This document shows, piece after piece, positions 7,903 through 49,600 of a stretch of 56,708 nt of DNA (position 1 is its first letter; each line of letters starts with the position of its first letter). The notes beneath the pieces are model-generated. The model was not told the DNA's origin, did no database searches, and saw nothing but the letters and a program-made list of their open reading frames with translations. This DNA is from an uncultured Bdellovibrionales bacterium. Its GTDB lineage: Bacteria; Patescibacteriota; Minisyncoccia; Moranbacterales; GWC2-37-73. The stretch is from NCBI GenBank assembly GCA_964484505.1, contig CAZAFB010000008.1, forward strand, positions 1 to 56,708. The letters are read 5' to 3'. The translations under genes were made by a program, and so were the position numbers.

Positions 7903-7938
7903 AAAAAAGAGAACCCTTGTGGTTCTCTTTTTCTTTTT
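7903..7938 (+). terminator. Intrinsic terminator after rpoC (bidirectional form)
   Basis: A-tract, AGAGAACC/GGTTCTCT stem with 5-nt loop, then T-tract. Confidence 0.85.
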
Positions 7939-9718: not shown

Positions 9719-9856
9719 AATTTTACAAATTTGCACCAAAAGAAGGAAAAAACAAAAAGTTTTTTTGGGTATTTTATGATAAGTATGCTTGGCAAAACGG
9801 TAGGGGAAATCCTTGCCGTTATTTTTGTTTATAAATGGCTAAAAAGGAAAAATAAG

Positions 9857-14141: not shown

Positions 14142-14238
14142 GCGACTCGAATGATACGAATATGCACCCGAATGACTCGAATGAAATTTGGTGTCGATAT
14201 TCGTAACATTAGAGTGATTATTGGTAAATTAGAGTCGC
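14142..14238. repeat. Periodic quasi-palindromic intergenic element (CGAAT/ATTCG family)
   Basis: Terminal IR GCGACTC/GAGTCGC; left arm has four CGAAT units, right arm ATTCG/ATTAG/ATTGG. Confidence 0.8.
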
Positions 14239-14242
14239 TAAT

Positions 14243-15250
14243 ATGATGGTACGATTTACGACTAAAAAAATTGAATCACTTACTTTGGGCGAGCGTTTGA
14301 AAAAAATGCGCAACGATCGCCGTTTGGGGACCAATGATGTCGCCAAAATGATAAAGGTGCAAGTGAAATATCTGCAATATCTGGAAGAAGGTGAGTATGC
14401 CAAATTGCCGGCAGATGTATATGTGAAAGGTTTTTTGAGAAGCATTGCTATCTTTTTTGGGGTTTCGGAAAAAGCACTGATTAAGCAATATGAAAGAGAG
14501 AAGGGTATTCAGCTAAGTACAGGGAAGGTTTCATTAAAAGATGAATCTCCCAGGATTGTTAAATATTCTGGTTTTGCCATAACACCTAAAATATTAATCG
14601 CATCGCTTGTTGCGGTGGCAGTAATTTCCGGATTTTGTTATTTGTATTTGGAAGTGAATAGTTTTGTATCTGTGCCGCGCTTAGTTATTCTGAAGCCCAG
14701 TGACGGAACTACTGTGGATGGCAATGTCGCTCATGTAATTGGAGTTGCGGAAAAGGATGCAGTTGTTTCCTTAAATGGTCAATTTGTTTTGGTAAATGAG
14801 AATGGCGAGTTTAGCGAGGATGTGACTTTGCAAAATGGACTAAATACAATAACCGTTGTTGCTAAAAATAAGTTTGACAAGGAGTCGACGCAGTCGATAA
14901 ATATAAATGCAAACATCGCTCAGCCTGAAATGCTGCAATCAGAAAACAGCGATAATAGAAGCGAAGAAGTTGATCAGCAACCGGAAGAACAGCAAGAGCA
15001 GTTTTCAGTAAGAGTGAATGTTGCTTCTAAAGGTATAAGTGTGAGAATTGAAGATGAAAAAGGAGTTTTGTTCGATGGTGGCATAGACCCGAAATTGCCG
15101 ATATCTTTGGATGTCAGAGGCGATATAAAAATATCTTCGACAAAAGGAAGTAAAACAGATGTGAGAATAAATGGAAAAGATTTGGGAGTGCTCAGTACAA
15201 ATACAGGAAAGGTCTCAGGAGTAATGTTCAATAAGGATGGCAGAAAATAG
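14243..15250 (+). CDS. rodZ: RodZ-like protein (XRE HTH, TM, Ig-like, C-terminal beta domain)
   Basis: TLGERLKKMR...YLQYLEEGEYAKLPADVYVKGFLRS, TM ILIASLVAVAVISGFCYLY, Ig-like LQNGLNTITVVAKNK. Confidence 0.8.
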   Translation: MMVRFTTKKIESLTLGERLKKMRNDRRLGTNDVAKMIKVQVKYLQYLEEGEYAKLPADVYVKGFLRSIAIFFGVSEKALIKQYEREKGIQLSTGKVSLKDESPRIVKYSGFAITPKILIASLVAVAVISGFCYLYLEVNSFVSVPRLVILKPSDGTTVDGNVAHVIGVAEKDAVVSLNGQFVLVNENGEFSEDVTLQNGLNTITVVAKNKFDKESTQSININANIAQPEMLQSENSDNRSEEVDQQPEEQQEQFSVRVNVASKGISVRIEDEKGVLFDGGIDPKLPISLDVRGDIKISSTKGSKTDVRINGKDLGVLSTNTGKVSGVMFNKDGRK

Positions 15251-16638: not shown

Positions 16639-16663
16639 AAAAAACCACCCGAAGGTGGTTTTT
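16639..16663. terminator. Bidirectional terminator (small ORF and efp)
   Basis: AAAACCACC-CGAA-GGTGGTTTT. Confidence 0.85.
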
Positions 16664-17276: not shown

Positions 17277-17363
17277 CGTTATAACGTTATAACGTTTTTA
17301 ACGTTTATAACGTTTTCTATTCGAGTTCTTTTAACGTTATAAACTTTATAAACGTTATGAACG
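17277..17363. repeat. TAACGTT-family periodic element (gene-free site)
   Basis: About eight 8-9-nt TAACGTT units; 17333-17347 is the reverse complement of the AAAGTTTATAACGTT core of the ORF6N flanks. Confidence 0.85.
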
Positions 17364-19170: not shown

Positions 19171-19238
19171 TGTCATGCTGAACTTGTTTCAGCATCTCGC
19201 TGGGCATCTCGAGATCCCGAAACAAGTTCGGGATGACA
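19171..19238. repeat. REP-like double palindrome (TGTCAT...ATGACA)
   Basis: TGTCATGCTGAACTTGTTTCAGCATCTC-N12-GAGATCCCGAAACAAGTTCGGGATGACA. Confidence 0.85.
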
Positions 19239-19249
19239 AGTAAGAGTTT

Positions 19250-21207
<1,958 letters not shown>

Positions 21208-21958: not shown

Positions 21959-22021
21959 TCACGAATCAGTACTAATTTTTCGCGAATATTCGCGAAAAGA
22001 TTTGAGAATGATTAGTGATTT
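21959..22021. repeat. CGAAT/ATTAG periodic element before uvrA
   Basis: TATCACGAAT...TTTTCGCGAATATTCGCGAAAA...ATTAGTGATT. Confidence 0.7.
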
Positions 22022-22029
22022 ATATAATC

Positions 22030-25005
22030 ATGGAGGAGAAAATTATTGTGCGTGGCGCGCGTGAGCATAACTTAAAGAACATAGACATCGAGCTTCCGCG
22101 CAACAAATTCATCGTTTTTACGGGGATTAGCGGCTCAGGCAAGAGTACGCTGGCTTTTGATACTATTTTTGCCGAAGGGCAGCGCCGATATCTGGAAAGT
22201 TTGTCGTCATATGCCAGGCAGTTTCTGGGGCAGATGGATAAGCCTGATGTTGATTATATCGAAGGACTTTCACCGGCAATTTCCATCGATCAAAAATCAA
22301 CTTCGCACAACCCGCGTTCAACTGTGGGCACAGTAACGGAAATCCATGATTATCTGCGTCTTTTGTATGCCAAAATTGGTGTGCCGCATTGTCCGGTTTG
22401 TGGCAGGGAAATAACTAAATTGTCTACGGATGAAATTGTGGACAGGATATTGGAATTGGGCAATAAATCCGGTTCGCAAAAAATTGAGTTGTTGTCTCCA
22501 ATAGTACGAGAAAGAAAAGGTGAATATTTGGCGCTTTTGGATGACATGTGGAAGCGAGGATTTTCGGAAGCGATTGTTGATGGAAAAACATATAAACTTG
22601 AAAACCATAATGAAATCAAACTTGAAAGATATAAAAAACACAGTATTGATCTTGTGGTTGATCGCTTGGAAATATCGGATGAAAATATTTCCCGCATATT
22701 TGAAGGAGTTGAAAAAACACTGAGAATGTCGCAAGGATTGGTTAAGATTCGCTGCAGCGAATCTAAATTACAAACTACAAAATCCAAATCCCAAATTTCA
22801 AATGACTCAAAAGCTAATAAGCCAGTGAAGCTAAAAGCCAGTGAAGCTTGTATTGAGCAGGTTTTTAATCAGAAATTGTCTTGTCCGGAGCATGATATTG
22901 AGTTTCCGGAGCTGGAGCCACGTTTGTTCTCGTTCAATTCGCCATTCGGGGCATGTGAGGCTTGTGAAGGTTTGGGACTGAAGAAGGAAATTGACCCGCA
23001 ATTAGTTGCGCCGGACATGAACAAGACGATTGCAGAAGGCGGTTTGGCGCCGTGGAATTTCAAAAAGAATAATTATTACGGCGGTGTTATTTTGTCGGCG
23101 GCCAGATATTTCCATGTGCCGGACAATGTACGCCTCAGGGATCTCCCAGAAAAGAAATTGAATCTGATGTTATATGGAACAGATGAAGCCGGAATAATTG
23201 CCAGCGAAAAAGATGCGGAAGAAATTCCGATTTCCGTGAGGGCAAAAACAGGATCAAGCTGGAAATTCTATATGACTTGGCGCGGCGTTGTCGGTTTTAT
23301 GCAAGAGAGATATTTCAAGACGGAATCTGATGCGGTTCGTGAAGGTATTGAAAAATACATGTCACAAAAACCCTGTTCAGTATGTAAGGGTGCAAGATAC
23401 AAAAAAGAAGTGCTGTTGGTTACAGTGGGCGGGAAGAATATCCACGAAGCTTCCGTGCTTAGCATTGCTGATTGTTTGACGTTTTTTGATAAACTTAAGC
23501 TTTCCAAGCGCGAAGAAATGATCGCAGGCAGGATTTTGAAAGAAATTAAAAGTCGTTTGGAATTTTTGAATAATGTGGGTTTGGATTATCTTACTCTACA
23601 TCGCAGCGCGTACACTCTTTCTGGCGGGGAATCGCAGCGCATTCGCTTAGCTTCGCAAGTTGGGTCTCAATTGGTCGGTGTTTTATATATTCTTGACGAA
23701 CCGTCGATCGGCTTGCATGCGCGTGACAACACTAAATTGATCGAAACGCTAAGGCATTTGCAGGAAATCGGTAACACTTTGATCGTGATTGAGCATGATG
23801 AAGAGATGATGCGCTCTGCGGATTGGCTTGTGGATATCGGTCCTGGAGCAGGGAAACACGGTGGAGAAGTAGTCGCTGCAGGAACGCCGCAGCAAGTGAT
23901 CGAGAACAAGAAATCTTTGACGGGCAAGTATTTGCGCGGAGAATTGGAAATAGAAACTCTCGTTTCGAGGCGTCCGATCAACAGAAAAAAGCATATTGTT
24001 CTGCGCAATGCTTCGCAGCACAATCTCAAAAATGTAACGGTGGAATTTCCGCTGAAAGTTTTTACGTGTGTGACTGGCGTGTCCGGCAGCGGCAAATCGA
24101 CGTTGGTTGAAGATACTTTGTATAAAGCACTGGCACATAAATTGCACCGCGCCTTGGAGGTTCCGGGAAGACACCAAGAAATTTTGGGAATCGAGAACAT
24201 CAATAAGGTGATCATGATAGACCAATCACCGATTGGCCGCACGCCGCGAAGCAATCCTGCGACATATACCGGTCTTTTCACGCATATCAGGGATTTATTC
24301 GCCCAAACTAAAGACGCAAAAATGCGTGGCTATGGTCCGGGGCGTTTCTCATTCAATGTTTCTGGCGGTCGCTGCGATCATTGTCAGGGAGAAGGATTTT
24401 TGAAAATCGAAATGCAGTTTATGCCGGACGTGTATTTGCCGTGCGATGTTTGCCATGGGAAAAGATATAACAGCGAGACGCTGCAAGTTAAATACAAAGA
24501 AAAAAGCATTGCTGATGTGTTGGCGATGACCGTTTCAGAAGCGCGGGAATTTTTTGCGAGCTACCCGAAAATACATGATATTCTGGCGGTAATTGAAGAT
24601 GTCGGGCTGGGATATATCGAACTGGGACAAAGTGCAACGACTCTTTCCGGAGGTGAAGCGCAGCGCATCAAATTGGCATCCGAGCTTGCGCGAAAAGCTA
24701 CTGGGGACACTTTGTATATTTTAGACGAGCCGACGACCGGACTTCATTTTGATGATATTAAAAAACTTTTGAATGTTTTAAATCGTTTGGTTGATGCGGG
24801 CAACACGGTGGTTGTAATCGAGCACAATATGGATGTGATCAAAACCGCTGACTGGATCATCGACATGGGACCTGAAGGCGGAGACGGTGGTGGCAGCGTG
24901 GTTGTAACCGGCACGCCGGAAGAGGTGGTGAAGTATCATAAAGAAAGTTATACGGCGAAATATTTAAAAGAGGTTCTTAACGTTCGTAACGCGAAACGTT
25001 CGTAA
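22030..25005 (+). CDS. uvrA: Excinuclease ABC subunit A (copy 1)
   Basis: [49 protein letters not shown], Zn fingers. Confidence 0.99.
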   Translation: MEEKIIVRGAREHNLKNIDIELPRNKFIVFTGISGSGKSTLAFDTIFAEGQRRYLESLSSYARQFLGQMDKPDVDYIEGLSPAISIDQKSTSHNPRSTVGTVTEIHDYLRLLYAKIGVPHCPVCGREITKLSTDEIVDRILELGNKSGSQKIELLSPIVRERKGEYLALLDDMWKRGFSEAIVDGKTYKLENHNEIKLERYKKHSIDLVVDRLEISDENISRIFEGVEKTLRMSQGLVKIRCSESKLQTTKSKSQISNDSKANKPVKLKASEACIEQVFNQKLSCPEHDIEFPELEPRLFSFNSPFGACEACEGLGLKKEIDPQLVAPDMNKTIAEGGLAPWNFKKNNYYGGVILSAARYFHVPDNVRLRDLPEKKLNLMLYGTDEAGIIASEKDAEEIPISVRAKTGSSWKFYMTWRGVVGFMQERYFKTESDAVREGIEKYMSQKPCSVCKGARYKKEVLLVTVGGKNIHEASVLSIADCLTFFDKLKLSKREEMIAGRILKEIKSRLEFLNNVGLDYLTLHRSAYTLSGGESQRIRLASQVGSQLVGVLYILDEPSIGLHARDNTKLIETLRHLQEIGNTLIVIEHDEEMMRSADWLVDIGPGAGKHGGEVVAAGTPQQVIENKKSLTGKYLRGELEIETLVSRRPINRKKHIVLRNASQHNLKNVTVEFPLKVFTCVTGVSGSGKSTLVEDTLYKALAHKLHRALEVPGRHQEILGIENINKVIMIDQSPIGRTPRSNPATYTGLFTHIRDLFAQTKDAKMRGYGPGRFSFNVSGGRCDHCQGEGFLKIEMQFMPDVYLPCDVCHGKRYNSETLQVKYKEKSIADVLAMTVSEAREFFASYPKIHDILAVIEDVGLGYIELGQSATTLSGGEAQRIKLASELARKATGDTLYILDEPTTGLHFDDIKKLLNVLNRLVDAGNTVVVIEHNMDVIKTADWIIDMGPEGGDGGGSVVVTGTPEEVVKYHKESYTAKYLKEVLNVRNAKRS
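22759..22848 (+). repeat. In-frame repeat-derived insert in uvrA
   Basis: CAAAT/CAAAA units plus a duplicated AAGCCAGTGAAGCT; encodes ESKLQTTKSKSQISNDSKANKPVKLKASEA. Confidence 0.8.
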
Positions 25006-27644: not shown

Positions 27645-27673
27645 AAAACGCTCCCATAAATGGGGAGTTTTTT
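27645..27673 (+). terminator. Intrinsic terminator
   Basis: CTCCC-ATAAATG-GGGAG with flanking A- and T-tracts. Confidence 0.6.
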
Positions 27674-27753: not shown

Positions 27754-30549
27754 ATGGCTTCCGCAAAAAAAATTGACGATATTGTGATCAAGGGTGCAAG
27801 GGTGAACAATCTCAAGAACATCGATGTGGCAATTCCGCGCAATAAGTTTGTCGTGGTCACCGGTCTTTCTGGTAGCGGCAAATCTTCCTTGGCATTCGAC
27901 ACGATCTATGCCGAAGGCAATCGCCGCTATATGGAAGGACTTTCTTCTTATGCGCGCAATTTCCTGGATCCTTCTGTGAAGCCGGATGTGGACAGGATTG
28001 AAAACTTGAGCCCGCCTATTTCTATTGATCAAAAAAGTGTGGCGCGTTCACCGCGTTCGACCGTGGGGACATTGACAGAAGTATATGACTACATTCGGAT
28101 TCTTTTTGCAAAGGTGGGCACCCTGCATTGTCCTGAGTGTGGCGCTTCCATGCAAAGAAGAAGCAACAGGGAAATTCTGGAAGAAGTATGTGCACTGCCA
28201 CATCACACCCATGTAGCCATTCTGGCTAAACCGCGCGACAAGGATGCTGATGCCCAAGCGGTGCTTTCTATGGTGCAACAGTCCGGATATGCGCGCGTAT
28301 GCGTTGGCGGCAAGATAATTGCGGTTACGGAAGCCCAAGGATATATCAAAGAACATTCAGATGCGGAAGTGGAAGTTGTGATTGATCGCATCATTTTCGA
28401 TCAAAAGAAGCAAGATCATGAAAGACTTCTCGATTCAATTGAGACGGCGATGAAATTGGGCAGTGGTGCGATGAATATTTTGATCGATGGAAATGAGAAA
28501 CGTTCATATAACCAAGATTTTTTTTGTGGTGATTGTGGCGTGAAAATTCGTGAAGTTACACCGAGACATTTTTCTTTCAATAGTCCGGAAGGAGCTTGTG
28601 ATAAATGCAGCGGATTGGGGTATACGTTGAAAGTAAATCCCGAGCTTGTAATTCCAAATAAGAATCTTTCTTTTGCGGAAGGTGCGATCCAACCTTGGAG
28701 CAAATCTGGCGGAAAGATTTCGAACAATAGTGCCAATATTCTGGCACTCAAAGCAATAGCCAAAGAACAAAAATTCTCGCTTGATGTGCCGATAAAAAAG
28801 CTGACCAAGAAGCAATTGGATTCGGTTCTTTTTGGCAATCTCGAAGGCAAAGGTGATTTTGCTGGAGTGGTTGGTGAGTTGGAAAAGAAATATCAAGAAA
28901 CCAAATCTGAATATATGCGGACGGAGATCGAGAAATATATGACTTTTCATGTTTGTTCTTCTTGCGATGGCAAGAGACTAAAGCCGGAATATTTGTCCGT
29001 ACGCATTTGTGGCAAAAATATCGATGATATAGTAAACATGGGCGTTACGGAGCTTAAAGATTTCTTGCTTGGCAATAAGGACTGGAAAGATACTGCCGTT
29101 GATGTTTCCGTAGTAAGCCAGTTGATCAAAGAAATTCAACAGCGGTTGGAAGCTCTGGAAAACGTAGGTTTGGAATATCTCAATTTGGGTAGAAGCGCCC
29201 AGACGATTTCTGGCGGAGAAGCACAGCGCATCCGTTTGGCAGCGCAACTCAATTCGCAGCTCATGGGAATAGTTTATGTTCTGGACGAGCCTTCAGTAGG
29301 ACTACATAGTCGCGATACGGAAAAATTGATTGCTACTTTGCGCAAGCTTCAGGATTTGGGAAATTCCTTGATAGTTGTTGAACATGATGAAAGTATTATT
29401 TCCGCTGCCGATTGGGTGATCGATATGGGACCGGGTGCGGGAAGCGAAGGAGGTATTGTCGTTTTTGAGGGAAATGTGCCGAAATTGCTGAAAGGAAAAA
29501 GTTTGACTGCGCAATATATGACCGGCAAGAAGAAGGTTTCTGAAAAAGCGAAGTATCGCAAAGGAAACGGCAAGCACATCGAAATTATAGGTGCAACTGA
29601 ACATAATCTCAAAAACGTGGATGTGAAAATCCCGCTCAAGAAATTCGTTTCGATCTGTGGCGTTTCCGGTAGCGGTAAATCCACTTTAGTGAACGATATT
29701 TTGGCCAAAGCACTTTCACGCCATTTTTTCAACGCGCGCGAATTGCCAGGAGCACACAAGAAAATTTCGGGACTCCAGCACATTGATAAGGTGATCAGTA
29801 TCGATCAGTCGCCAATCGGGCGCACACCGCGTTCCAATGCGGCAACATATACGGGAGTGTTTTCGCACATTCGCGAACTTTTCGCACAGGAAGAAGAATC
29901 CAAAAACCGCGGCTATACAGCGAGTCGTTTCAGTTTCAATATGAAAGGCGGACGCTGCGAAGTGTGCCAGGGTGAGGGATACAAAAAAATCGAAATGCAT
30001 CTTTTGCCGGACGTTTATGTAAAATGCGAAGCCTGTGATGGCACGCGTTATAGCAAAAAAACTTTGGAAATTGAATATAAGGGATTCAATGTGGCGCAAG
30101 TTCTGGATATGGATGTGCGTTTTGCGCTTAGATTTTTCGCCAAGCATCCTTTGATTGCCGAAAAACTGAAAACTATGGAGGACGTAGGTCTTGGATATCT
30201 TAAATTGGGACAAAGCGCGACCAATCTTTCCGGCGGCGAAGCACAGCGTATCAAGCTGGCGACGGAATTAGCTCGTAAATCTACAGGCAATACCTTATAT
30301 ATTTTGGATGAACCAACGGCAGGGCTTCATTTCGAGGATACTAAAAGACTTTTGGGTGTGCTCAATGCTTTGGTGGATAAGGGTAATACGGTTTTAGTGG
30401 TCGAGCACAATCTTGATGTGATCAATGAAGCAGACTGGGTAATCGAACTCGGTCCGGATGGAGGTAGCAGCGGCGGAGAATTGATATATGAAGGCACGCC
30501 GGATAAATTGAAGAAAAGCAAGAAGAGTTGGACAGCGAAGTACCTTTAA
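27754..30549 (+). CDS. uvrA: Excinuclease ABC subunit A paralog (copy 2)
   Basis: [49 protein letters not shown]; both ABC modules intact. Confidence 0.95.
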
Positions 30550-33669: not shown

Positions 33670-33778
33670 GAACCACTGATTATCACATGAGCACACATGA
33701 TTTCACTGAAATAAGTATAAAAAATAAATGCACCACAATCACGTGTAATCAGGATAATCACGTGGTAATCAGTGGTTC
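33670..33778. mobile_element. MITE-like element, copy 3 (no nested palindrome)
   Basis: GAACCACTGATTATCACATGA...AATCAGTGGTTC. Confidence 0.75.
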
Positions 33779-33786
33779 TGAAATAT

Positions 33787-34953
33787 ATGAAAATAGGAAT
33801 TGATGCCAGGACAATTTTGAATCCTGAAAAGGGAGACGCGATCGGCGTAGGGCATTATACCTATCAACTGATCCGTCATCTGCTCAAAAACGATACGGAA
33901 AACGAGTACGTCATTTTCTTTGATTTTCGTGTGCGTGAAAAGGATGTGAAAAAATTTACCAAGCCTAATGTGAAAATCAAATTCTATCCTTTTTCCGATT
34001 ACAAAAAATATATGCCGGGAGTATATAATGAAATTCTTGGCGCAGCTACTTTGCAGAAAGAAAAGCTTGATGTGTTGCATACGACGTCTCCGATGAGTCG
34101 CATCCCGCAATCATACACAGGAAAAACAATTGTTACTTTTCATGACATGGGAATGTTTGCGGTGGAAAAATATTATCCGGCACTTCGCCGTACACGCGCG
34201 AAAGTATTGTCGCGCATGATGGCAAAAAAGGCGGATCGCATAATTGCCGTATCGGAAGCTATCAAGAAAGAGATCGAACAATATCTTGAAGGTACGAATG
34301 GGAAAACGGATATTGTGCGCAGTGGAATCGATGCGAGATTTTTTCAAGATCCTGAGGATGGCAAGAAAGCATTGGAAAAATTCGGTATCAAGAAAAAATA
34401 TATTTTGTTTTTGGGAACACTTGAGCATTCCAAAAACATCGGCAGACTTTTGGAAGCTTTCGCCAAATTCAAGCAAAAGGAAACACAAGGCGGCAGCGAT
34501 AATTTCGAGTACCAATTGGTGCTTGCCGGCAAGCGTGGACATGACAGTGAATTTTTCAAGAAGAAAGCACAAGATTTGCAAATATCCAAAGACGTTGTTT
34601 TCACGGGATATGTTGTTGGTGATGAATTGGTGCCGCTGTTCAAAGGTGCAGAATTTTTCGTGATGCCTTCATTGTACGAAGGTTTCGGCATGACCGCCTT
34701 GGAAGCATTTGCAACCAAAACACCTTCGATTTTGGGCAAAATACCGACATTGGAAGAAATTGCGGGAGACGCGGCATATTTTGTTGATCCGAAAAGCACT
34801 GAGGAGATCGCGGAAGCTATCGGAAAATTTGCCCATGATGAAAACCTGAGGGAATCATATAGACAAAAAGGAATCGAAAGAGTCAAAGGATTTGATTGGG
34901 ACAAAACAGCGAAAGAGACACTAGAAATTTATAGGCAAGTTGCAGGAAAATAG
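33787..34953 (+). CDS. Glycosyltransferase family 4 (GT-B)
   Basis: MKIGIDAR, GVGHYT, TFHD, LFLGTLEHSKN, MPSLYEGFGMTALEA, FDWDKTAKET. Confidence 0.93.
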   Translation: MKIGIDARTILNPEKGDAIGVGHYTYQLIRHLLKNDTENEYVIFFDFRVREKDVKKFTKPNVKIKFYPFSDYKKYMPGVYNEILGAATLQKEKLDVLHTTSPMSRIPQSYTGKTIVTFHDMGMFAVEKYYPALRRTRAKVLSRMMAKKADRIIAVSEAIKKEIEQYLEGTNGKTDIVRSGIDARFFQDPEDGKKALEKFGIKKKYILFLGTLEHSKNIGRLLEAFAKFKQKETQGGSDNFEYQLVLAGKRGHDSEFFKKKAQDLQISKDVVFTGYVVGDELVPLFKGAEFFVMPSLYEGFGMTALEAFATKTPSILGKIPTLEEIAGDAAYFVDPKSTEEIAEAIGKFAHDENLRESYRQKGIERVKGFDWDKTAKETLEIYRQVAGK

Positions 34954-34978
34954 AATAAGATATATATTAAAAATGGAA

Positions 34979-35287
34979 AAGCGATGATGGAGATATCACT
35001 CCATCGCCCCGTTGAAATGTTCACTTTGTGAATTTCACGGGGCAAGCTGTGCGAAGAAAAGGCAAGCCGCCTTCGTCAAGACTACGGCGAGCCGCAGTAG
35101 AACGCATCGGGCAAGCCCGTAATAGCTGTAATTAAGTCGTGAAGCTCACAACTTGAATCTTGAAGTGAAAGTTTCAAGCTTTATGTTTCAAGTTTCACGA
35201 GAATTAAGGTGGTACCACGCCCAGATCACAGTCGCTCCCGAGCGATGTGACACGCGTCCTTATGCATTTTTTGCGTAGGGATTTTTT
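34979..35287 (+). ncRNA. T-box riboswitch (Ile, AUC specifier) with ultrashort Stem I and intrinsic terminator
   Basis: GATGGAG-ATATCA-CTCCATC; Stem II with AAGAA/AGTAGAA S-turn; IIA/B CGGGCAAGCCCG; antiterminator TAAGG-TGGTACC-ACGC / GCGT-CCTTA; terminator 35257-35287. Confidence 0.92.
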
Positions 35288-35295
35288 GTTTATCT

Positions 35296-35387
35296 CTACG
35301 AATTACGAATAGGTACGAAAGTACGAATGTGCAAAGATATTTATTATTTGTATATTTGTAAATTTGTAATTGATTTGTAATTTGTAG
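35296..35387. repeat. TACGAAT/ATTTGTA periodic element between the T-box and ileS
   Basis: Four TACGAA units, then five ATTTGTA-like units. Confidence 0.8.
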
Positions 35388-35397
35388 AACTAAAAAT

Positions 35398-38322
35398 ATG
35401 TTTAAGAAAGTAGATCAAAAACAACCATTTCCAAAAATGGAGGAAGAAATTCTGAAGTTTTGGGATGAAAATAGGGTGTTTGAAAAGTCGGTCAGTAATC
35501 GTGAGGGCGCCAAAAAATACAGTTTTTATGACGGTCCTCCGTTTGCAACCGGGTTGCCGCACTATGGCCATTTAGTGGCAAGTACAATGAAAGATGTTGT
35601 GCCACGCTATTGGACGATGCGCGGTTATCAAGTTGAGCGAAAATGGGGCTGGGATTGTCATGGCTTGCCGATCGAAAATATTGCAGAAAAGGCATTGGGA
35701 ATTTCCCATAAAAAAGACATTGAAAAAATGGGAGTGGATAAGTTCAACGAATTTTGTCGCACAACCGTCTTGAAATATGTTGATGAATGGAAAATTGTCA
35801 TCAATCGTCTCGGCCGCTGGGCTGACATGGAAAATAGTTATAAGACGATGGATCTTTCGTATATGGAATCGGTGTGGTGGGTGTTTAAACAACTTTGGGA
35901 CAAAGGATTGATTTACGAAGGGTATCGTTCAATGCATGTATGTACGCGCTGCGAAACTACACTTTCCCAACAAGAAGTAAGTGAAGGATACAAGGATATA
36001 AAGGACTTATCCGCAATTGCCAAATTCGAACTGATAGACGAACCGGGGACGTTTGTTTTGGCATGGACGACAACGCCATGGACATTGATTGGTAATGTGG
36101 CGTTAGCAGTTGGGAAGGATATTGAATATGCAAAAATCAGAACCACTGATTCTCACATGAAAACACATGATTGCACTGAGCATTTTATTATCGCAAAGGA
36201 AAGGTTAGTTGAACTTTTTGCGGATAAAAAATATGAAGTAATTGATAAATTTAAAGGCAGTGATTTAATTGATAAAAACTACAAACCACTCTTTGATTAT
36301 TACCAAAACAAAGGTCTGGAAAATGAGGAAAACGGCTGGAAAATATATGCTGCGGATTTTGTGACTACGGAAGAAGGAACGGGCGTGGTACATATTGCGC
36401 CAGCTTTTGGTGAAGATGACCTGAATCTAAGTTATCAATATAAATTGCCATTCATTCAACACGTTGGCATGGATGGACTTATCAAGAAAGAGGTGGGAGA
36501 ATTTGCGGGACTCAGCGTGAAACCATTGGAAAACCATATGAGCACAGATATTGAAATTATCAAATATTTGGCTCATAGTAATCTGCTGTTTTTTAAGGAA
36601 AAATACGAACACAGCTATCCACATTGCTGGAGATGTGATACGCCTCTAATCAATTACGCGACATCTTCGTGGTTTGTCAAAGTTACTGATATTAAAGAAA
36701 AAGCACTGGAATTGGCCAAGGAAATCAATTGGTCACCGGCACATATGAAAGAAGGACGTTTCGGCAATTGGCTTGAGGGAGCTCGCGATTGGTCAATTTC
36801 GCGCCAACGTTACTGGGCTTCTGTTATGCCGATTTGGAGGTGTGAATGTGGCGAAGTGAAAGTGATGGGGTCGGTGGCGGAGCTCGAAGAATTGAGTGGT
36901 AAAAAAATAACCGATCTGCACAAACATGTTGTCGATGGAATCACGTTGAAGTGCGATAAATGCAGTGGTGAGATGAAAAGAATTCCTGATGTCTTGGATA
37001 CATGGTTTGATAGCGGCTCGATGCCGTATGCACAAGTGCATTATCCCTTCGAGAACAAAGAGAAGTTTGACGCGGGATTCCCGGCGGAGTTTATTGCGGA
37101 AGGAGTGGATCAGACGCGCGCATGGTTCTATTACCTGCATATTATTGCGTCTGCAATCAAGGAGAAGCCGGCTTTTAAGAATGTTATTGTGAATGGAATT
37201 GTGTTGGCTGAGGACGGGAAGAAGATGAGTAAGAGGCTGCAGAATTATCCCGACCCGAGTTTTGTGTTTGAAAAATATGGCGCCGATGCTCTGCGATTTT
37301 ATCTGATGTCGTCGCCGGTTGTTGCAGCTGATAATTTGAATTTCAAGGAAAATGATGTAGCTGATTTGATTCGTGGTATGTTCCGCATGCTTTGGAATTC
37401 ATATTCTTTTTTTGTGATGTATGCAAACATCGATGGCTTTCAGTCGTCAATAGCGACAAGCAACAAGCGACAAGCGACAAGTCTTCTCGACAGATGGATT
37501 TTGTCGGAACTCAACGTTCTTATTAATGATGTGAATCGTCATATGGAGGCGTATGAATTGCATAAGGCCGCAAGGTTATTTCCAAAATTCATTGATAATC
37601 TTTCCAATTGGTATATTCGCAGATCGCGTAAACGTTTTTGGAAATCGGAAAATGATACGGATAAGAACGAGGCTTATGCGACCTTGCATCATGTGCTGGT
37701 GACACTTTCGCAACTCATGGCGCCGTTTACACCGTTTGTGGCAGAAGAAATTTATAGAAATCTTACAGGGGAAGAATCTGTCCATCTCTCTGATTTTCCT
37801 GCGGTTGATGAAAAGATGATTGATGAGAAATTGAACGAACAAATGAACGCGGCGCGGGAAATTGTGAGCGCAGGTCTTCAAAAACGCGCGGAGGCGAAAA
37901 TAAAAGTGCGTCAGCCTTTGGCGAGCGCAACTGTTTTTGTGGAGCTCTCCGAAGAATTGAAGGAGATTGTGAAGGAAGAACTGAATGTAAAAACGATAGT
38001 TTTGGGAGATTTGGAAAATAGGGGGGATTTGGGAAATGTGGTGTTGAACACGGAAATTACTGAAGAGTTGAAGTTGGAGGGGCAGGCGAGGGAGGTGATT
38101 CGCGCAATTCAGGAGATGCGAAAATCAGCCGGCTTTGAGGTTGACAATCGCATAAATATATGCTATAATGGATTGTCAAAAGTTTTTGGAAAGTTCGGCG
38201 ATTTGATTGCCAAAGAAACGCTTTCCCAAGCCCTAAGTGAAGGAAAAATGGCAGAAGCTGATTTGGAAAAGGATTTTACGATTGATAATGAAAGCGTTAT
38301 AATAGGAATAAAGAGAGTTTAA
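35398..38322 (+). CDS. ileS: Isoleucine--tRNA ligase (type 2)
   Basis: DGPPFATGLPHYGH, GWDCHGLP, WTTTPWTL, DWSISRQRYW, GVDQTRAWFY, KMSKR. Confidence 0.99.
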   Translation: MFKKVDQKQPFPKMEEEILKFWDENRVFEKSVSNREGAKKYSFYDGPPFATGLPHYGHLVASTMKDVVPRYWTMRGYQVERKWGWDCHGLPIENIAEKALGISHKKDIEKMGVDKFNEFCRTTVLKYVDEWKIVINRLGRWADMENSYKTMDLSYMESVWWVFKQLWDKGLIYEGYRSMHVCTRCETTLSQQEVSEGYKDIKDLSAIAKFELIDEPGTFVLAWTTTPWTLIGNVALAVGKDIEYAKIRTTDSHMKTHDCTEHFIIAKERLVELFADKKYEVIDKFKGSDLIDKNYKPLFDYYQNKGLENEENGWKIYAADFVTTEEGTGVVHIAPAFGEDDLNLSYQYKLPFIQHVGMDGLIKKEVGEFAGLSVKPLENHMSTDIEIIKYLAHSNLLFFKEKYEHSYPHCWRCDTPLINYATSSWFVKVTDIKEKALELAKEINWSPAHMKEGRFGNWLEGARDWSISRQRYWASVMPIWRCECGEVKVMGSVAELEELSGKKITDLHKHVVDGITLKCDKCSGEMKRIPDVLDTWFDSGSMPYAQVHYPFENKEKFDAGFPAEFIAEGVDQTRAWFYYLHIIASAIKEKPAFKNVIVNGIVLAEDGKKMSKRLQNYPDPSFVFEKYGADALRFYLMSSPVVAADNLNFKENDVADLIRGMFRMLWNSYSFFVMYANIDGFQSSIATSNKRQATSLLDRWILSELNVLINDVNRHMEAYELHKAARLFPKFIDNLSNWYIRRSRKRFWKSENDTDKNEAYATLHHVLVTLSQLMAPFTPFVAEEIYRNLTGEESVHLSDFPAVDEKMIDEKLNEQMNAAREIVSAGLQKRAEAKIKVRQPLASATVFVELSEELKEIVKEELNVKTIVLGDLENRGDLGNVVLNTEITEELKLEGQAREVIRAIQEMRKSAGFEVDNRINICYNGLSKVFGKFGDLIAKETLSQALSEGKMAEADLEKDFTIDNESVIIGIKRV
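36140..36179 (+). repeat. In-frame left arm of the GAACCAC MITE in ileS
   Basis: GAACCACTGATTCTCACATGAAAACACATGATTGCACTGA; encodes RTTDSHMKTHDCT. Confidence 0.85.
37452..37479 (+). repeat. In-frame heptamer array in ileS
   Basis: AGCGACA-AGCAACA-AGCGACA-AGCGACA; encodes ATSNKRQAT. Confidence 0.75.
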
Positions 38323-43615: not shown

Positions 43616-46600
43616 ATGAAACCAAGGGCGAATCATTTTAAGAGACATTTTTTCCTAGGCGCAAGCTTTTTCGCGATGGTTTTTTTGTTTTTTTCTCATA
43701 ATGCTAACGCGGCAACCATTACTTGGGATGGATCATCCTCAACTGATTGGGCTACTGCAGCAAACTGGGTTGGCGATGCGGTGCCTACCTCCACTGATGA
43801 CGTGGTTATCAATGGCAGTTATACAAATGCTCCCATCCTCAATCTTTCCGCCGGTGCGGTTACGGTAAATTCTCTCTCTGTCGGATCAAGTGCAACATCG
43901 GTGGTGACCGTTTCCAATGGAGATATCGATACCAAAAAACTTATAGTTACGGGAGATGTAACGATCGGAGCAAGCGGAACTTTGACTCACACAGCCAATT
44001 CCAGCGCTGAGACACACAGACTTTCTTTGCAGGTAGGGGGCAACATGACGATAGTTTCAGGTGGCTCAATTAGTATCAACAGCAAAGGTTATACAGGCAC
44101 AAGTGGTAATGGTCGTGGTCCAGGTGCCGGAGGGGGAGGCGATATTAATCAGCGTGGTAGTGGTGGGGGTCATGGCGGCAAGGGCGCTAGCACTACAACG
44201 CATGCAGGCGGTACCACTTATGACTCCATAACACAGCCTGCAATGATAGGTTCTTCGGGCGGAACTTGTTCTCGTGCAGCTTATGGCGGTGCTGGCGGTG
44301 GCGCTGCAAAAATTGTGGTAGGGGGAACATTAACTTTGGAAGGAGCATTGACGGCAGTGGGTGGCAATGGAATTACTGATAAGTGTTCCGGCGGTGGTTC
44401 GGGAGGAGCTATTTGGGTTGTTGCTGGAAATTTAACAGGTGCTGGATCGATTAATGCAAATGGAGGCACTTCATATAACAATGATTTAACTTCTGCCAGC
44501 GGTGGCGGTGGTGGAAGAATAGCAATTGAATATACCACAAGTTCTTTTTCTGGAGCCATTACCGCTTTTGGTAAGACCGGCTATGCCTATGGAGGTGCGG
44601 GAACAATCTATTTGAAGCAGGGAACAAACAATGGCGATCTTATTGTTGATAATAATTCAGTGGCTGGTGCGGATACGCTGCAGCTTGCCGGAACTAACTT
44701 CACTTTTGATAATGTAACAATTACGAAATCGGCAAAATATGTAATCCCGGATACTTCCAGCTTGGCAGCTTCTGTAAGTCTCTCCGCAAATTCAGTTGAC
44801 GCAACGATAACTGTTAACAGCGGTGGCTCAATGACATTACCCGCCAGTCAAAATTCTCTAGCTTATTTTTCCATAGCCAATAGCGGAACAGTCAATGTCT
44901 CGCAATCAAATTTTTCTATTTCCAACGGAACAATTACGAATAACGGAACAATAACGGGCATATCGAACTTAACTTTGTCATCAGTTACTTTCTATCAAAA
45001 CGGAACGCTTACTGGAATAACTGATCTTATTGTCGGCGCGTCATCAACTTTTGAATTTCAAAATCTTACACCCTCAACACCTTTCAATTTAAATAGCTTG
45101 ACTATTCAAAGCAGCGGAGTTTTAACGCATAAAGGAAATTCTTCAACAGAAGCGTATACTCTTAATTTGAATATTTCCGGCAATCTAGATGTGCAATCTG
45201 GCGGTTCGATTAATCTGAACAGCAAAGGTTATACAGGCACAAGTGGTAATGGTCGTGGTCCAGGTGCCGGAGGGGGAGGCGATATTAATCAGCGTGGTAG
45301 TGGTGGGGGTCATGGCGGCAAGGGCGCTAGCACTACAACGCATGCAGGCGGTACCACTTATGACTCCATAACACAGCCTGCAATGATAGGTTCTTCGGGC
45401 GGAACTTGTTCTCGTGCAGCTTATGGCGGTGCTGGCGGTGGCGCTGCAAAAATTGTGGTAGGGGGAACATTAACTTTGGAAGGAGCATTGACGGCAGTGG
45501 GTGGCAATGGAATTACTGATAAGTGTTCCGGCGGTGGTTCGGGAGGAGCTATTTGGGTTGTTGCTGGAAATTTAACAGGTGCTGGATCGATTAATGCAAA
45601 TGGAGGCACTTCATATAACAATGATTTAACTTCTGCCAGCGGTGGCGGTGGTGGAAGAATAGCAATTGAATATACCACAAGTTCTTTTTCTGGAGCCATT
45701 ACCGCTTTTGGTAAGACCGGCTATGCCTATGGAGGTGCGGGAACAATCTATTTGAAGCAGGGAACAAACAATGGCGATCTTATTGTTGATAATAATTCAG
45801 TGGCTGGTGCGGATACGCTGCAGCTTGCCGGAACTAACTTCACTTTTGATAATGTAACAATTACGAAATCGGCAAAATATGTAATCCCGGATACTTCCAG
45901 CTTGGCAGCTTCTGTAAGTCTCTCCGCAAATTCAGTTGACGCAACGATAACTGTTAACAGCGGTGGCTCAATGACATTACCCGCCAGTCAAAATTCTCTA
46001 GCTTATTTTTCCATAGCCAATAGCGGAACAGTCAATGTCTCGCAATCAAATTTTTCTATTTCCAACGGAACAATTACGAATAACGGAACAATAACGGGCA
46101 TATCGAACTTAACTTTGTCATCAGTTACTTTCTATCAAAACGGAACGCTTACTGGAATAACTGATCTTATTGTCGGCGCGTCATCAACTTTTGAATTTCA
46201 AAATCTTAACGCTTCTACGCCTTTTAATCTTAGCAATCTCACGGTCCTAAGTGGAGGAACAATAACTCACAAAGCAAATTCCTCAACAGAAACGTATACC
46301 TTGAACTTGAATATTTCAGGTGATTTTGATTTGCAATCCGGAGGAGCGATAAGTCTTAATGGTAGGGGTTATGTCGGGAAAAGTGGTACGGGATATGGTC
46401 CGGGTGCTGGTGCAGGCGGTGATTTAAATGCTTATGGCGCCGGTGGTGGATATGGAGGTAAGGGAGGAAACGGAAGAGCGGGCTTAGTTGGGGGGTCGCC
46501 GTATGGATCAATTGTACAACCTGTAAATATTGGTTCATCAGGTGGAGCAGCAACAGCAACATCAGGATCTGGCGGTGGTGCTGTAAAGATAATTGTCGGA

Positions 46601-49600
46601 GGACTTTTTAATATTAACGGAACGATTTCCGCTAATGGCACCAACGGGCTGACAAATGATAGATCCGGTGGCGGTTCCGGGGGAGGAATTTGGATTAACG
46701 CGAATACCATAGGGGGAGGGGGTTCAATTTCAGCCAATGGGGGAAACGCTTATAATACGTATGGAGCTGGAGGCGGAGGTGGTGGTCGTATTGCGGTTGA
46801 ATATCTAAGCAGTACTTTTAGCGGCACTTATTCATCTTCCGGAGGCACGGGATATAATGCCGGAAATGCCGGTACTATTCGCACAGGCTCTCTTTCTGCG
46901 GAAGTATTATCCTCCCCCTATGATTCCGGAAGTGGACAAAATGTTATTGCTAAGCTTCAATGGACGGAAACACTGCCTGCGGGTACGGATGCGAAATTTC
47001 AAATCAGAACAGCCCCTGATAATGGCGGAGCACCAGGAACCTGGACTTCTTGGATGGGTCCCAATGGTACTTCCGGAACATATTTTACCGATCCATCAGG
47101 AGGGGAGGATATTCCTGCCGCTTTGGAAGATGGCGCAAACGATCAATGGATGCAGTACAGGGTTTTGTTGAGCAGTCCCGACCTTTCAGTCAATCCGGTT
47201 GTTGGCGATGTATCATTGTTTTATGTGGTAAATCAGCCGCCTAGTTTTGATGCCACTTTTGGTACCGATGGAATCAATCTTTCACAAGTATCAAGCTCTG
47301 TCGATCCGCAATGGGGCAAGATGAAAATAGAATATGCGGTGCGCGATGTCGATACTACTTCCGGAACGGTAACTCAAAATTACGCAACCCCTTCTTTCGA
47401 ATATTCTTTCGATGGTTCCAATTGGACAGCGGTCAATTCGGCGTATGTGACATATTCCGCGCCGGCGCAAGGCGATGTCGCTGACGTTAACGGCGATGGC
47501 AAGATGGATAACAAAATGTTGGAAGGAAGCTATCTGACATATGCAGCGTATTGGAACGCTAAGTCTCAAATTCCGGAAACATATTCCGAATCCATTCGCG
47601 TAAGGATTACCCTTACTGACAATGAAATAGCCAACAGTACTGTGCAAGCTATTGGAAATATAATTAGCGTAGACACGAAAAACCCGACATTGGCCAGTGT
47701 GCCGATGCATGTGCATGCCAATTCTGTGCCTGCTTCAGTTTCATCTGATGTAACAGATGATAATTCCTTGCAGATGAGAATCGGCTTGGCAACGGATATT
47801 TCCGATGCTTCTTGGGAAAGCTATGCCGCCAGCAAACAGCTTGCGCTGGCAACCAATCCCGATATTGTCTATGCTCAATATCGCGATGCTTTTGGTAATT
47901 CCAGTGTTATTTTATCAGCTCAAACGCCTGAGCAGCCGGCGACAGTAATGATTCAGGATACTTCGAACATGCACAATGACCTTAATGAATATAGGCTTTT
48001 TGTGGCATGGAAAACGATCGCTACGCCAGAAGTGGGATTTGGTTCATATTATGTGTACCGTTCGGAAAATCAGACAGACTGGACTCATGTAGGAACCGTG
48101 AATGAAAGGCTGACCAACTATTATGGTGACAATTCCGTGCAGGGAAATGTGAATTATTATTATCGTGTAGCATCCGTAGATAGTAGCGGTGATATATCAT
48201 ATGTTTCAGCAATCGTTAACGGAGTGGCTAACGGTAATGTCGATGCGGGAGAGGGAGGCGGAGGAACGGGCGAACAACCCCCGGTAATTTCCAATGTAAC
48301 CGTGGACAATATTACGCCTACTAGCGCGCAGATAAACTGGACAACTGACGTTATAGCAACTTCCACAGTGGGATTTTCCACTCAACCTTCACATTTCGAA
48401 AATGAAGTAGGATCAGGATCCATGGTTACATCGCATAGCGTTACTTTGAGCAGTCTTACTCCCAACACTCAATATTATTTCCAAACAAAGTCGGCAAATG
48501 CTTCGAATGCTTTAGCTGTCGACACCAATGGAGGAAATGGCTATACATTTTCTACTTCAGCTGGCGACAGTACTGCTCCAATAATTTCCAATATCACAGT
48601 TGCGAATACGACTGCTTCGACCGCAACAATAACCTGGGATACCAATGAAGCTGCTACTTCCTTTGTGGAATATTCAAAAACGAATGGATTTTCCACGGGA
48701 GCGCAATTTGGAGATGTTGCGATGACCACAAGCCATAGTGTAACTGTGCCGTCTTTGGAACAAGGAACAACTTATTATTTCAAGGTCCGCTCCAAAGATG
48801 CGGCGAATAATGAAGGAATATCGGCACAAAGCAGTTTTGATACGTTAGTCAGCGGGGATGTGACATCTCCGCAAATAAGCGGTTTGTCTTCCACACCATC
48901 TTTCAATAGCGCTACCGTAACTTGGACTACCGACGAGGATGCGACATCCTATGTTGAATATGGCTCGAACACATCCTATGGTCGTATTTATGGGGACAAT
49001 AATCCGGTAAAATCACATACGGTTCAGCTTCCCTATGATCTTTCTTCCGAACAGTCATATCATTTCAGAGTCAGATCATTTGACGGTTCGTATAACGAAG
49101 CAATTTCTTCCGATAATACTTTTACGACAACTGTAAATCCGGCAGATTCCACAGCGCCGTTGATTGCTAATATCAACATCGGCACACCAGACAGGGACAG
49201 CGTGACTGTAACTTGGAATACGGATGAATCATCAACGTCATATGTCGGTTATTCCAGCGATGGGGGTGATACTTTTTCCGAGCAAGGCTACTCCACTTTA
49301 ACAACATTCCATAGCGTAACTCTGGCCGGTCTTACTCCCGGTACGACATATCTGTTGAAGATTTCCTCGGCAGATGCTTCCGGCAATAAAGCTACTGATG
49401 ACAATGCTGGTTCTTATTATCAAAGAGCAACAGCTCCCGGTCCAGTACCGCCAGTATTCAGCTCCGTATCTTCATCGAATCTGGACGAACATCGCACGAC
49501 TGTTACCTGGAGCACGGATCTCTCTTCAACTTCGCTTGTTGAATATGGTTTGGATACTAACTATGGTTCCGTAGCTGGCAAGCTCGATGATAAGACAAGC

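Follow-up and report, generated by a model that had tools for sequence, protein, structure and literature searches.

The isoleucyl-tRNA synthetase gene ileS of contig CAZAFB010000008.1 is preceded by a T-box leader located at 34976-35287 on the + strand, in the 444-nt gap that separates ileS from an upstream glycosyltransferase gene. Positions are those of the whole stretch of DNA analyzed, 56,708 nt long, which we call the window. We confirmed that this leader has a complete T-box structure. By sequence comparison, its sensor is a homolog of the class III, ultrashort-Stem-I T-boxes of Actinobacteria. The modeled structure makes it likely that the leader responds to tRNA-Ile and controls ileS by transcription attenuation, by means of this class III decoding half. 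Structure, covariation, sensor homology, and the mutual exclusivity of the output helices were computed, and it is from these that we infer tRNA binding and termination by the leader.

A T-box structure upstream of ileS

We compared the ileS loci of one genome per GTDB species, 80 in all, with the window. A covariance model of the decoding half (R1; 101 positions, 14 base pairs) was trained on 15 leaders; the window and three other leaders carrying an inserted hairpin were left out of the training, and one loop base was trimmed from the training sequences. Run on both strands of the 56.7-kb window, R1 gave one match, at 34976-35137 (49.5 bits, E ~1e-10). Over the 80 loci plus the window, it recovered the 15 training and the four held-out leaders, all with E<=1e-8, and no credible match was obtained in the ~60 other loci (Firmicutes, Proteobacteria, Spirochaetes, Chloroflexia, and others). 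The survey of Patescibacteria (candidate phyla radiation, CPR) leaders that the initial annotation had proposed yielded the same short-Stem-I design 5' of ileS at 18 loci beyond the window, in Moran-/Paceibacteria-like lineages, Saccharibacteria, WS6, and Woesebacteria. In the window, the leader is made up of the following elements:

34980-35048, + strand: Stem I domain, with basal helix AGC (34980-82)/GCU (35046-48), 3-nt bulge GAU (34983-85), and apical helix 34986-92/34999-35005
35006-35043, + strand: inserted hairpin GCCCCGU...ACGGGGC, 38 nt, in the 3' strand of Stem I; present in the minimum free energy (MFE) fold, R1 skipping a 55-nt insertion here
35050-35106, + strand: Stem II, with basal helix UGCG (35050-53)/CGCA (35103-06), S-turn strands AAGAAA(A) (35054-60) and AGUAGAA (35096-102), and an upper helix that includes CGCCUUCGUCAAGACUACGGCG
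35108-35127, + strand: Stem IIA/B pseudoknot, with IIA CGG (35108-10)/CCG (35117-19), IIB AGC (35114-16)/GCU (35125-27), and the F-box equivalent CCGUAA (35117-22)
35138-35199, + strand: Stem III, a 62-nt hairpin CGUGAA.../...UUCACG of the MFE fold, differing in length and sequence among lineages
35205-35262, + strand: antiterminator, with A1 UAAGG/CCUUA (35205-09/35258-62), bulge UGGUACC (35210-16), and A2 ACGC/GCGU (35217-20/35254-57)
35256-35287, + strand: intrinsic terminator found by a terminator scan, with an 11-bp stem GUCCUUAUGCA/UGCGUAGGGAU (35256-82), loop UUUUU, and a U6 tract (35282-87)

Direct reading of the sequence located every element named in the initial annotation where it had been placed. 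The 7-bp Stem I helix is GAUGGAG/CUCCAUC (34986-34992/34999-35005), which a separate hairpin scan returned as 34986-35005. It closes the 6-nt apical loop AUAUCA (34993-98), within the 5-7 nt of class III loops; Stem I is short and lacks a distal double T-loop, and R1 pairs AGC with GCU as its base. Stem II with its S-turn is followed by IIA/B, as claimed, the R1 alignment having high posterior probability there and the helices covarying. The F-box equivalent is CCGUAA in the window, CCGUCA or CCGUAA in the CPR relatives, and CCGUCA in Nocardia farcinica. Stem III is flanked by AAG (35134-36) and AGAA (35200-03), both conserved in the alignment of the 19 leaders, which may correspond to the purines that flank Stem III in T-boxes (RRRxG-Stem III-AA). 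The UGGU bulge announced by the initial annotation lies between A1 and A2 as part of the 7-nt UGGUACC (35210-35216), and the antiterminator has an energy of -16.8 kcal/mol. Some features had gone without mention in the initial annotation: the 38-nt hairpin of Stem I, a 33-nt insertion in the A2 loop, the absence of kink-turn (K-turn) G.A pairs, and a hairpin in the 110-nt spacer before the start codon. The A2-loop insertion (35221-35253) has its own 10-bp hairpin and reaches 46 nt in locus L008; such insertions are common in translational T-boxes (PMC7583486).

The apical loop exposes the isoleucine codon AUC (34995-97), matching ileS and followed by a purine, A34998. As AUAUCA also holds the overlapping triplets AUA and UAU, the effector might be other than tRNA-Ile(GAU), with the loop presenting AUA (tRNA-Ile2) or UAU (Tyr). 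We regard this as extremely improbable. Among the 19 CPR leaders and the actinobacterial references, only AUC and the next position are conserved, whereas the two loop bases before AUC vary (AU, CU, CG, UG, UU, UA, CC, CA). In every case ileS is the regulated gene, and for the structures from N. farcinica and Mycobacterium tuberculosis, experiments have defined AUC at the same loop position as the specifier.

Sequence variation among the 19 leaders strongly supports the helices. AUC, UAGA, the IIA CG..CG pairs, A..AG, and G-UGGUACC are invariant. The Stem I arms occur in at least 12 different sequences, which are always complementary. In the model-based alignment, 96.4% of helix cells are paired, against 21-46% with slid partners. 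Double changes are found at 11 of the 14 pairs; they amount to 60 cells, compared with 15.7 +/- 3.4 in shuffles, and none of 500 shuffles was as good. The apical helix of Stem I is 100% paired and the basal helix of Stem II 97%, each with double changes at four of four pairs, and a compensatory change from G-C to C-G is seen at the Stem II base of the window. The pairs of IIA are either invariant or covarying. The core pairs of IIB are paired in 16-19 of the 19 sequences with three to seven double changes (89% against 27-44% when slid, in a fixed-column count for which the loop gap was placed by hand, leaning towards structure). A1 and A2 covary over the 19 leaders, and the 3' strand of the terminator changes in concert. 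The fold of the window leader (-118.6 kcal/mol) lies at z = -6.5 relative to shuffles.

The same data bear on the possibility that the leader is a decaying or nonfunctional relic, with ileS cotranscribed with the glycosyltransferase gene. The distribution of the element would suit such a reading, the T-box being patchy (~18 of the roughly 40 CPR ileS loci fetched). The two loci with the closest isoleucyl-tRNA synthetases (IleRS; L001, 71%; L002, 68%) keep the glycosyltransferase-ileS order with a gap of ~10 nt and no leader (L001:2100-2180, L002:2420-2505). The window copy itself lacks the K-turn G.A pairs and has three insertions. However, these insertions lie where functional T-boxes are variable as well (the loops of Stem III and A2) or are matched in three other lineages. 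AUC with its purine, the S-turn, CCGUAA, UGGUACC, and the complementarity of A1, A2, and terminator are all intact; the helices are fully paired, with the compensatory change at the base of Stem II included, and shuffles fold far less stably. A relic is therefore very unlikely, and we retain a functional T-box.

The base of Stem I deserves a separate description. Most of the 15 insertion-free leaders and both actinobacterial references have the K-turn form GGC-NNN-GA...GA-GCC. The window reads AGC-GAU-GA...UC-[38-nt hairpin]-AA-GCU, in which GA faces UC and forms Watson-Crick pairs. Unrelated hairpins occupy the same point of Stem I in the window and in L024, L025, and L003, and all four leaders lack the 3'-strand GA. 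Their coordinates are 34980-35048 in the window, L024:2201-2250, L025:2260-2315, and L003:1988-2035. It looks as if the four leaders gained these hairpins independently, with repeated replacement of the K-turn by a three-way junction. Judging from the sequences, we infer that the junction stands in for the K-turn bend in these leaders.

Homology of the sensor to class III T-boxes

Class III T-boxes have a short Stem I that lacks the double T-loop platform, carry the specifier in its apical loop, and depend on Stem II (PMC10482949). We used as references the decoding modules of N. farcinica (T99, the construct of PDB 6UFM) and M. tuberculosis (MtbT87), taken from the supplement of PMC10651847. 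A profile hidden Markov model (HMM) built from CPR leaders only matched MtbT87 with 40.0 bits (E 9e-12) and T99 with 32.9 bits (E 1.5e-9), near full length in each case; the best of 2000 dinucleotide shuffles reached 1.3 bits. The correspondence is apparent from the layouts. MtbT87 reads GGC-GAC-GA-U-CCGG[CGAUCA]CCGG-G-GA-GCC ... UCGG-AAGAA ... AGUAGAA-CCGA ... CGGG-UUGG-CCCG-UCACA-GCC, and the CPR leader L007 reads GGC-GUU-GA-U-GAGG[CUAUCA]CCUC-G-GA-GCC ... UGGG-AAAAAA ... AGUAGAA-CCCA ... CGGG-GAGG-CCCG-UCAUA-GCC.

We also scanned metagenome contigs for the shared S-turn and IIA/B core, which yielded at least 80 loci. Among the matches listed, R1 recognized 79 of 80 of these loci at 31.8-82 bits, 78 of them at 47 bits or more. 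Most of the metagenome leaders listed have 60-76% guanine plus cytosine (GC) and a Stem I identical or near-identical to those of Nocardia and Mycobacterium. The A2-loop insertion is also present in this GC-rich set. Together, the matches of the CPR-only HMM and of R1 indicate that the CPR sensor is homologous to that of class III, in line with the actinobacterial-type sensor proposed by the initial annotation. As the N. farcinica module binds tRNA at ~24 nM without elbow contact (PMC10482949), tight binding by this type of sensor is established.

The predicted terminator and the probable mode of regulation

The initial annotation had described the 3' strand of the antiterminator as overlapping a terminator with a U6 tract, and this is borne out: GUCCUUA is at once the A2/A1 3' strand and the terminator 5' strand. 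Since both helices use it, antiterminator and terminator are mutually exclusive. Over 35205-35282, the terminator state has an energy of -31.1 kcal/mol and the antiterminator state (A1, A2, and free bulge) -19.9 kcal/mol. The terminator state being more stable by 11 kcal/mol, the default state would be OFF, as in characterized T-boxes. The terminator itself is a stable stem-loop followed by a U-tract (11 pairs, 5-nt loop, U6, -14.4 kcal/mol). Hairpin plus U-tract signals are also found in this genome after genes, at 7904-7932 (rpoC), 9796-9820, 16640-16663, and 27650-27668.

The proposed sequence of events is modeled on how T-boxes are established to work and on the class III structures (PMC7583486). 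In the nascent RNA, the loop of Stem I would present AUC to the GAU anticodon, with no elbow-binding platform involved. The S-turn purines of Stem II would then dock on the minor groove of the codon-anticodon helix, placed by the IIA/B pseudoknot. Once Stem III and the T-box have been made, the free ACCA-3' end of uncharged tRNA-Ile would pair with UGGU and stabilize A1 and A2. Holding A1/A2 would block the terminator, and RNA polymerase would continue into ileS. If tRNA-Ile is charged or absent, the 11-bp hairpin would capture GUCCUUA, and transcription would stop at U6 (35282-87). The discriminator of bacterial tRNA-Ile is generally A73, assumed here as well, with which the invariant UGGU of all 19 leaders is consistent.

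The principal alternative is that this T-box acts post-transcriptionally, with the switch helix or the long 5'-UTR hairpin near the AUG affecting translation initiation or mRNA stability, and that the terminator-like hairpin and U6 are incidental in an AT-rich genome. All characterized members of this sensor class are indeed translational (PMC7583486, PMC1262725, bioRxiv 10.1101/2023.02.28.530422), and the ileS T-boxes of Actinobacteria were originally described with hairpins sequestering the Shine-Dalgarno (SD) sequence "instead of terminators" (PMC1262725). Nevertheless, in the window, the switch helix contains no SD and has none nearby, and it is followed by U6. The start codon lies 110 nt beyond the U6 tract, as the initial annotation had noted, a distance that makes SD masking by the switch helix geometrically impossible. 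In the CPR lineages that use an SD (L042, L043, L050, L058, L071), it lies downstream of the U-tract, outside the switch helix.

Of the 19 CPR leaders, 18 retain the helix directly before 4-8 consecutive U, the exception being L019, with a weak 5-bp stem before U8. By contrast, among the matches listed, U-runs in the 80 nt around the antiterminator do not exceed 4 in 67 of 69 GC-rich Mtb-like leaders, and in such leaders an SD-like complement to the 3' strand of A1 (CGAGG, CGGGG) stands a few nucleotides ahead of the start of ileS. The U-tract is present despite high GC in the Saccharibacteria-type L043 and L147 (56-61% GC) and in L086 (60% GC); it is thus not a mere by-product of AT-rich DNA. 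A stem poor in G-C pairs and the missing elbow contact, which is credited with the speed of transcriptional T-boxes, would also suit post-transcriptional action, as would the -37.8 kcal/mol hairpin whose end lies 3-9 nt short of the AUG, where it might affect initiation. This hairpin is, however, not conserved, and similar ones precede unrelated genes, which probably places it outside the tRNA switch. Altogether, we consider post-transcriptional action unlikely, and transcription attenuation is the reading we prefer.

Several observations nonetheless weigh against attenuation by a T-box in the window. The leader has no elbow platform, which transcriptional T-boxes have been argued to need for fast tRNA capture (PMC7583486). 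The base of Stem I has no K-turn of tandem G.A pairs beside the 3-nt bulge, and the K-turn has been reported as essential in short Stem I/Stem II constructs. At the base of A2, where a G.U pair reportedly serves to sense the aminoacyl group sterically, the window has the Watson-Crick pair A35217-U35257, in which the U is kept; in the other CPR leaders, the pair is A-U, G-C, or G.U. The terminator stem is AU/GU-rich, with four G-C pairs of 11, and U-runs are commoner at 41% GC. The very stable hairpin between terminator and AUG might be a second layer of control.

Finally, the curated Rfam T-box model (RF00230; gathering score 93) gives the leader 24.9 bits (E 0.0015 when 551 nt were searched), and over the whole window it finds nothing at the gathering score or at E<=0.1. 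Of the covariance models, the class I-type Rfam model stays below its cut-off, whereas the purpose-built R1 has its single match. The low Rfam score is explained by the elbow-binding platform, missing from this element. The Rfam alignment nevertheless has high posterior probability at the K-turn-side motif AGCGAUGA, at AGUAG, at the IIA hairpin, at AAGGUGGUACCACG, and at the antiterminator. In Rfam 15, the canonical Firmicutes ileS T-boxes L060 and L066 (long Stem I, no Stem II) also score below 93 bits. The threshold is therefore strict, and the failure of the CPR leaders is not specific evidence of divergence; it probably misses many T-boxes beyond those of CPR.

The CPR leaders do not all share one terminator topology. 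In the Saccharibacteria loci L043:2265-2453, L050:2293-2477, L052:1157-1348, and L042:2310-2478, the helix next to the U-tract is formed by the Stem III 3' strand and the purine linker (by the linker in L042) with sequence 3' of the antiterminator, and the terminator encloses an intact antiterminator. The competition there would be between Stem III and the terminator. In the Woesebacteria loci L058 and L071, the terminator sequesters the ACC of the bulge and the A2 5' strand.

One metagenome leader, L086 (JGI2924J29684_1073262, 60% GC), has the Stem I GGGG[CCAUCA]CCCU, a hairpin in the bulged K-turn strand, and the bulge UGGUAAC; a 10-bp helix is followed by UUUUGUUUU, the SD AAGGAG, and ileS. 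Its IleRS fragment is closest to that of a Chloroflexia metagenome-assembled genome (MAG; 54.5% over 143 aa). From these sequences, the short-stem plus terminator design may extend beyond CPR. The initial annotation had read the window leader as a hybrid in which an actinobacterial-type sensor drives transcriptional output in a different phylum; sequence comparison supports this and, with L086, perhaps in more than one phylum.

Distribution, genomic context, and comparison with known T-boxes

The regulated gene and the noncoding features around the leader are as follows:

34928-34956, + strand: promoter-like site TTTATA-17-TAGAAT, a putative start of the leader overlapping the glycosyltransferase stop codon (consensus scan, 9/12; weak evidence)
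35289-35394 (core 35295-35388), + strand: hairpin of the ileS 5' untranslated region (UTR), between terminator and start codon, from folding and a listing of repeats
35398-38322, + strand: ileS, the regulated gene, encoding a type 2 isoleucyl-tRNA synthetase (TIGR00392, 959.6 bits)

The upstream neighbor, at 33772-34953, encodes a GT4 glycosyltransferase. In relatives of the leader, a TACAAT or CACAAT box stands at an equal distance 5' of Stem I. The ATG of ileS, at 35398, is 110-111 nt past the U-tract. The best PDB matches of IleRS are type 2 and eukaryote-like enzymes (~820 bits), the type 1 enzyme of Staphylococcus aureus reaching 318 bits. The initial annotation had ascribed the DNA to a CPR genome, and the IleRS agrees: its closest relatives are in a Paceibacteria MAG (71%) and a Moranbacteria MAG (68%), followed by Falkowbacteria, Kaiserbacteria, Saccharibacteria, WS6, and Woesebacteria. 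The host genome has ~41% GC. The 56.7-kb window was found to contain neither a tRNA gene nor any Rfam family that reaches its gathering score, and there was no tRNA-Ile gene in the window or in the ~48 loci searched.

The 5'-UTR hairpin has an energy of -37.8 kcal/mol (z -7.85) for the + strand and of -12.8 kcal/mol (z -2.3) for the - strand; in it, four copies of TACGAA are matched to UUUGUA repeats by G.U wobble pairing. The L008 and L019 spacers contain no such hairpin. An origin of the 110-nt spacer as a mobile-element relic was rejected: there is no DNA inverted repeat, the repeat motif is confined, within the window, to this spacer, and the + strand fold depends on G.U pairs. Other hairpins of the window lie at 14142-14238, before an open reading frame at 14243 (-30.3 kcal/mol, z -2.6, containing TACGAA/UUCGUA), and at 19171-19238, before uvrB at 19250 (-35.5 kcal/mol, z -5.3); a third hairpin or inverted repeat is near a start codon at 17289-17363. 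Large stem-loops seem to be a feature of 5' UTRs in the host genome, and the hairpin at 35289-35394 is probably a genome-specific case of this kind, outside the tRNA switch. It might act on how the readthrough transcript is translated or on how stable it is, or be an RNase III site.

At four loci, genes are interposed between the Ile T-box and ileS. They encode a 92-aa membrane protein (L003:2194-2472), a 168-aa coiled-coil protein (L048:1992-2498), a protein with a Fic-like motif and a 171-aa protein (L005:832-2399), and proteins of 174 and 198 aa (L052:1345-2462); these names are provisional. A further metagenome locus, L091 (contig Ga0208904_1000036, 32% GC), has a short-stem Ile T-box and terminator 5' of ileS. 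Its IleRS is 54% identical to those of MAGs labeled archaeal (L038, L039) and 53% to Woesebacteria. We rejected an archaeal T-box in this case: the contig encodes RuvA and other bacterial genes, and L038 and L039 have no T-box. The locus hints at transfer of ileS between CPR and DPANN-labeled genomes, or at mis-binning. Elsewhere in the window, two UvrA paralogs (22015-25005 and 27754-30549), 2.7 kb apart, flank uvrC, and a 2740-aa protein encoded at 43616-51838 contains fibronectin type III and purple-acid-phosphatase-N repeats.

The ultrashort class has been known only as translational, as the initial annotation had stated and as PMC7583486 and bioRxiv 10.1101/2023.02.28.530422 describe. TBDB lists T-boxes in Firmicutes, Actinobacteria, Chloroflexi, and Deinococcus-Thermus; its class II model was seeded from and applied to Actinobacteria alone, apart from sequences that the Rfam model had already detected. 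Listings of ileS T-boxes in Chloroflexi date back to 2008. Full-text literature, in a search that did not extend to Sherwood 2015, Vitreschak 2008, or the TBDB entries, yielded no report of T-boxes for Patescibacteria, the candidate phyla radiation, or Saccharibacteria. In a 2024 perspective, regulation in Patescibacteria is called virtually unknown, and no native riboswitch is mentioned (PMC11665869). As the Rfam threshold misses the element and the TBDB search for short stems was confined to Actinobacteria, CPR T-boxes are probably missing from catalogs systematically. We conclude with moderate confidence that the leader combines a known sensor class with an undescribed terminator output, which is not categorically new.

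We see about an even chance that class III T-boxes work cotranscriptionally, with the Ile sensor wired to terminators across Patescibacteria and possibly in a Chloroflexi-like lineage. If so, this would contradict the need for the Stem I elbow platform for speed in transcriptional T-boxes. The kinetic account divides T-boxes into transcriptional ones with a long Stem I and translational ones with a short Stem I; in the former, the elbow contact is said to be needed so that tRNA is loaded ahead of the arrival of polymerase at the terminator (PMC7583486). A terminator-bearing family with a short Stem I would be its natural counterexample. With this family, Patescibacteria would also gain a first described native regulator of the riboswitch class. 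It would provide a conserved and interpretable regulator of an essential gene in this group, including the Saccharibacteria, for which culture and genetics exist. The sensor and type 2 ileS together could then be an old shared feature of Actinobacteria, CPR, and relatives. With the same sensor on type 2 ileS and different outputs in Actinobacteria and CPR, the expression platform appears easily rewired, the strand opposing A1 being the SD in the former and the 3' half of the terminator in the latter. Two wiring variants within the family are undescribed: the putative three-way junction replacing the K-turn in the lineage of the window and the Saccharibacteria terminator that encloses the antiterminator.

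Among the closest known systems are the class III T-boxes of N. farcinica (6UFM), M. tuberculosis (6UFG), and M. smegmatis. They share with the window leader the short Stem I without double T-loop and the NNAUCA apical loop; the AAGAA/AGUAGAA S-turn of Stem II, the CGG...CCG IIA, the IIB pseudoknot, the CCGUCA/CCGUAA F-box, and the UGGUACC bulge; insertions in Stem III and in the A2 loop; and a type 2 ileS as the regulated gene. The output differs: in Actinobacteria, a sequestrator masks the SD near the start codon and there is no U-tract, whereas the window and its CPR relatives have a hairpin and U-tract. The window leader further departs from class III by a putative three-way junction in place of the K-turn G.A pairs and by A-U, not G.U, at the base of A2.

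Canonical class I transcriptional T-boxes (B. subtilis tyrS; RF00230) have in common with the window leader the competition of antiterminator and terminator with its U-tract, the Stem II S-turn, the IIA/B pseudoknot, Stem III, and the 7-nt UGGN bulge. They possess, however, an elbow-binding Stem I platform, generally required in transcriptional T-boxes (PMC7583486), of which the window leader has none. Lastly, the T-boxes of type 2 ileS in Firmicutes (Anaerovoracaceae and other Clostridia, L054-L076) share the AUC specifier, UGGUACC, and the terminator with U-tract. They differ from the window leader in that Stem I is long, with a distal loop and an AGAGA bulge, Stem II and IIA/B are missing, and R1 gives no match.

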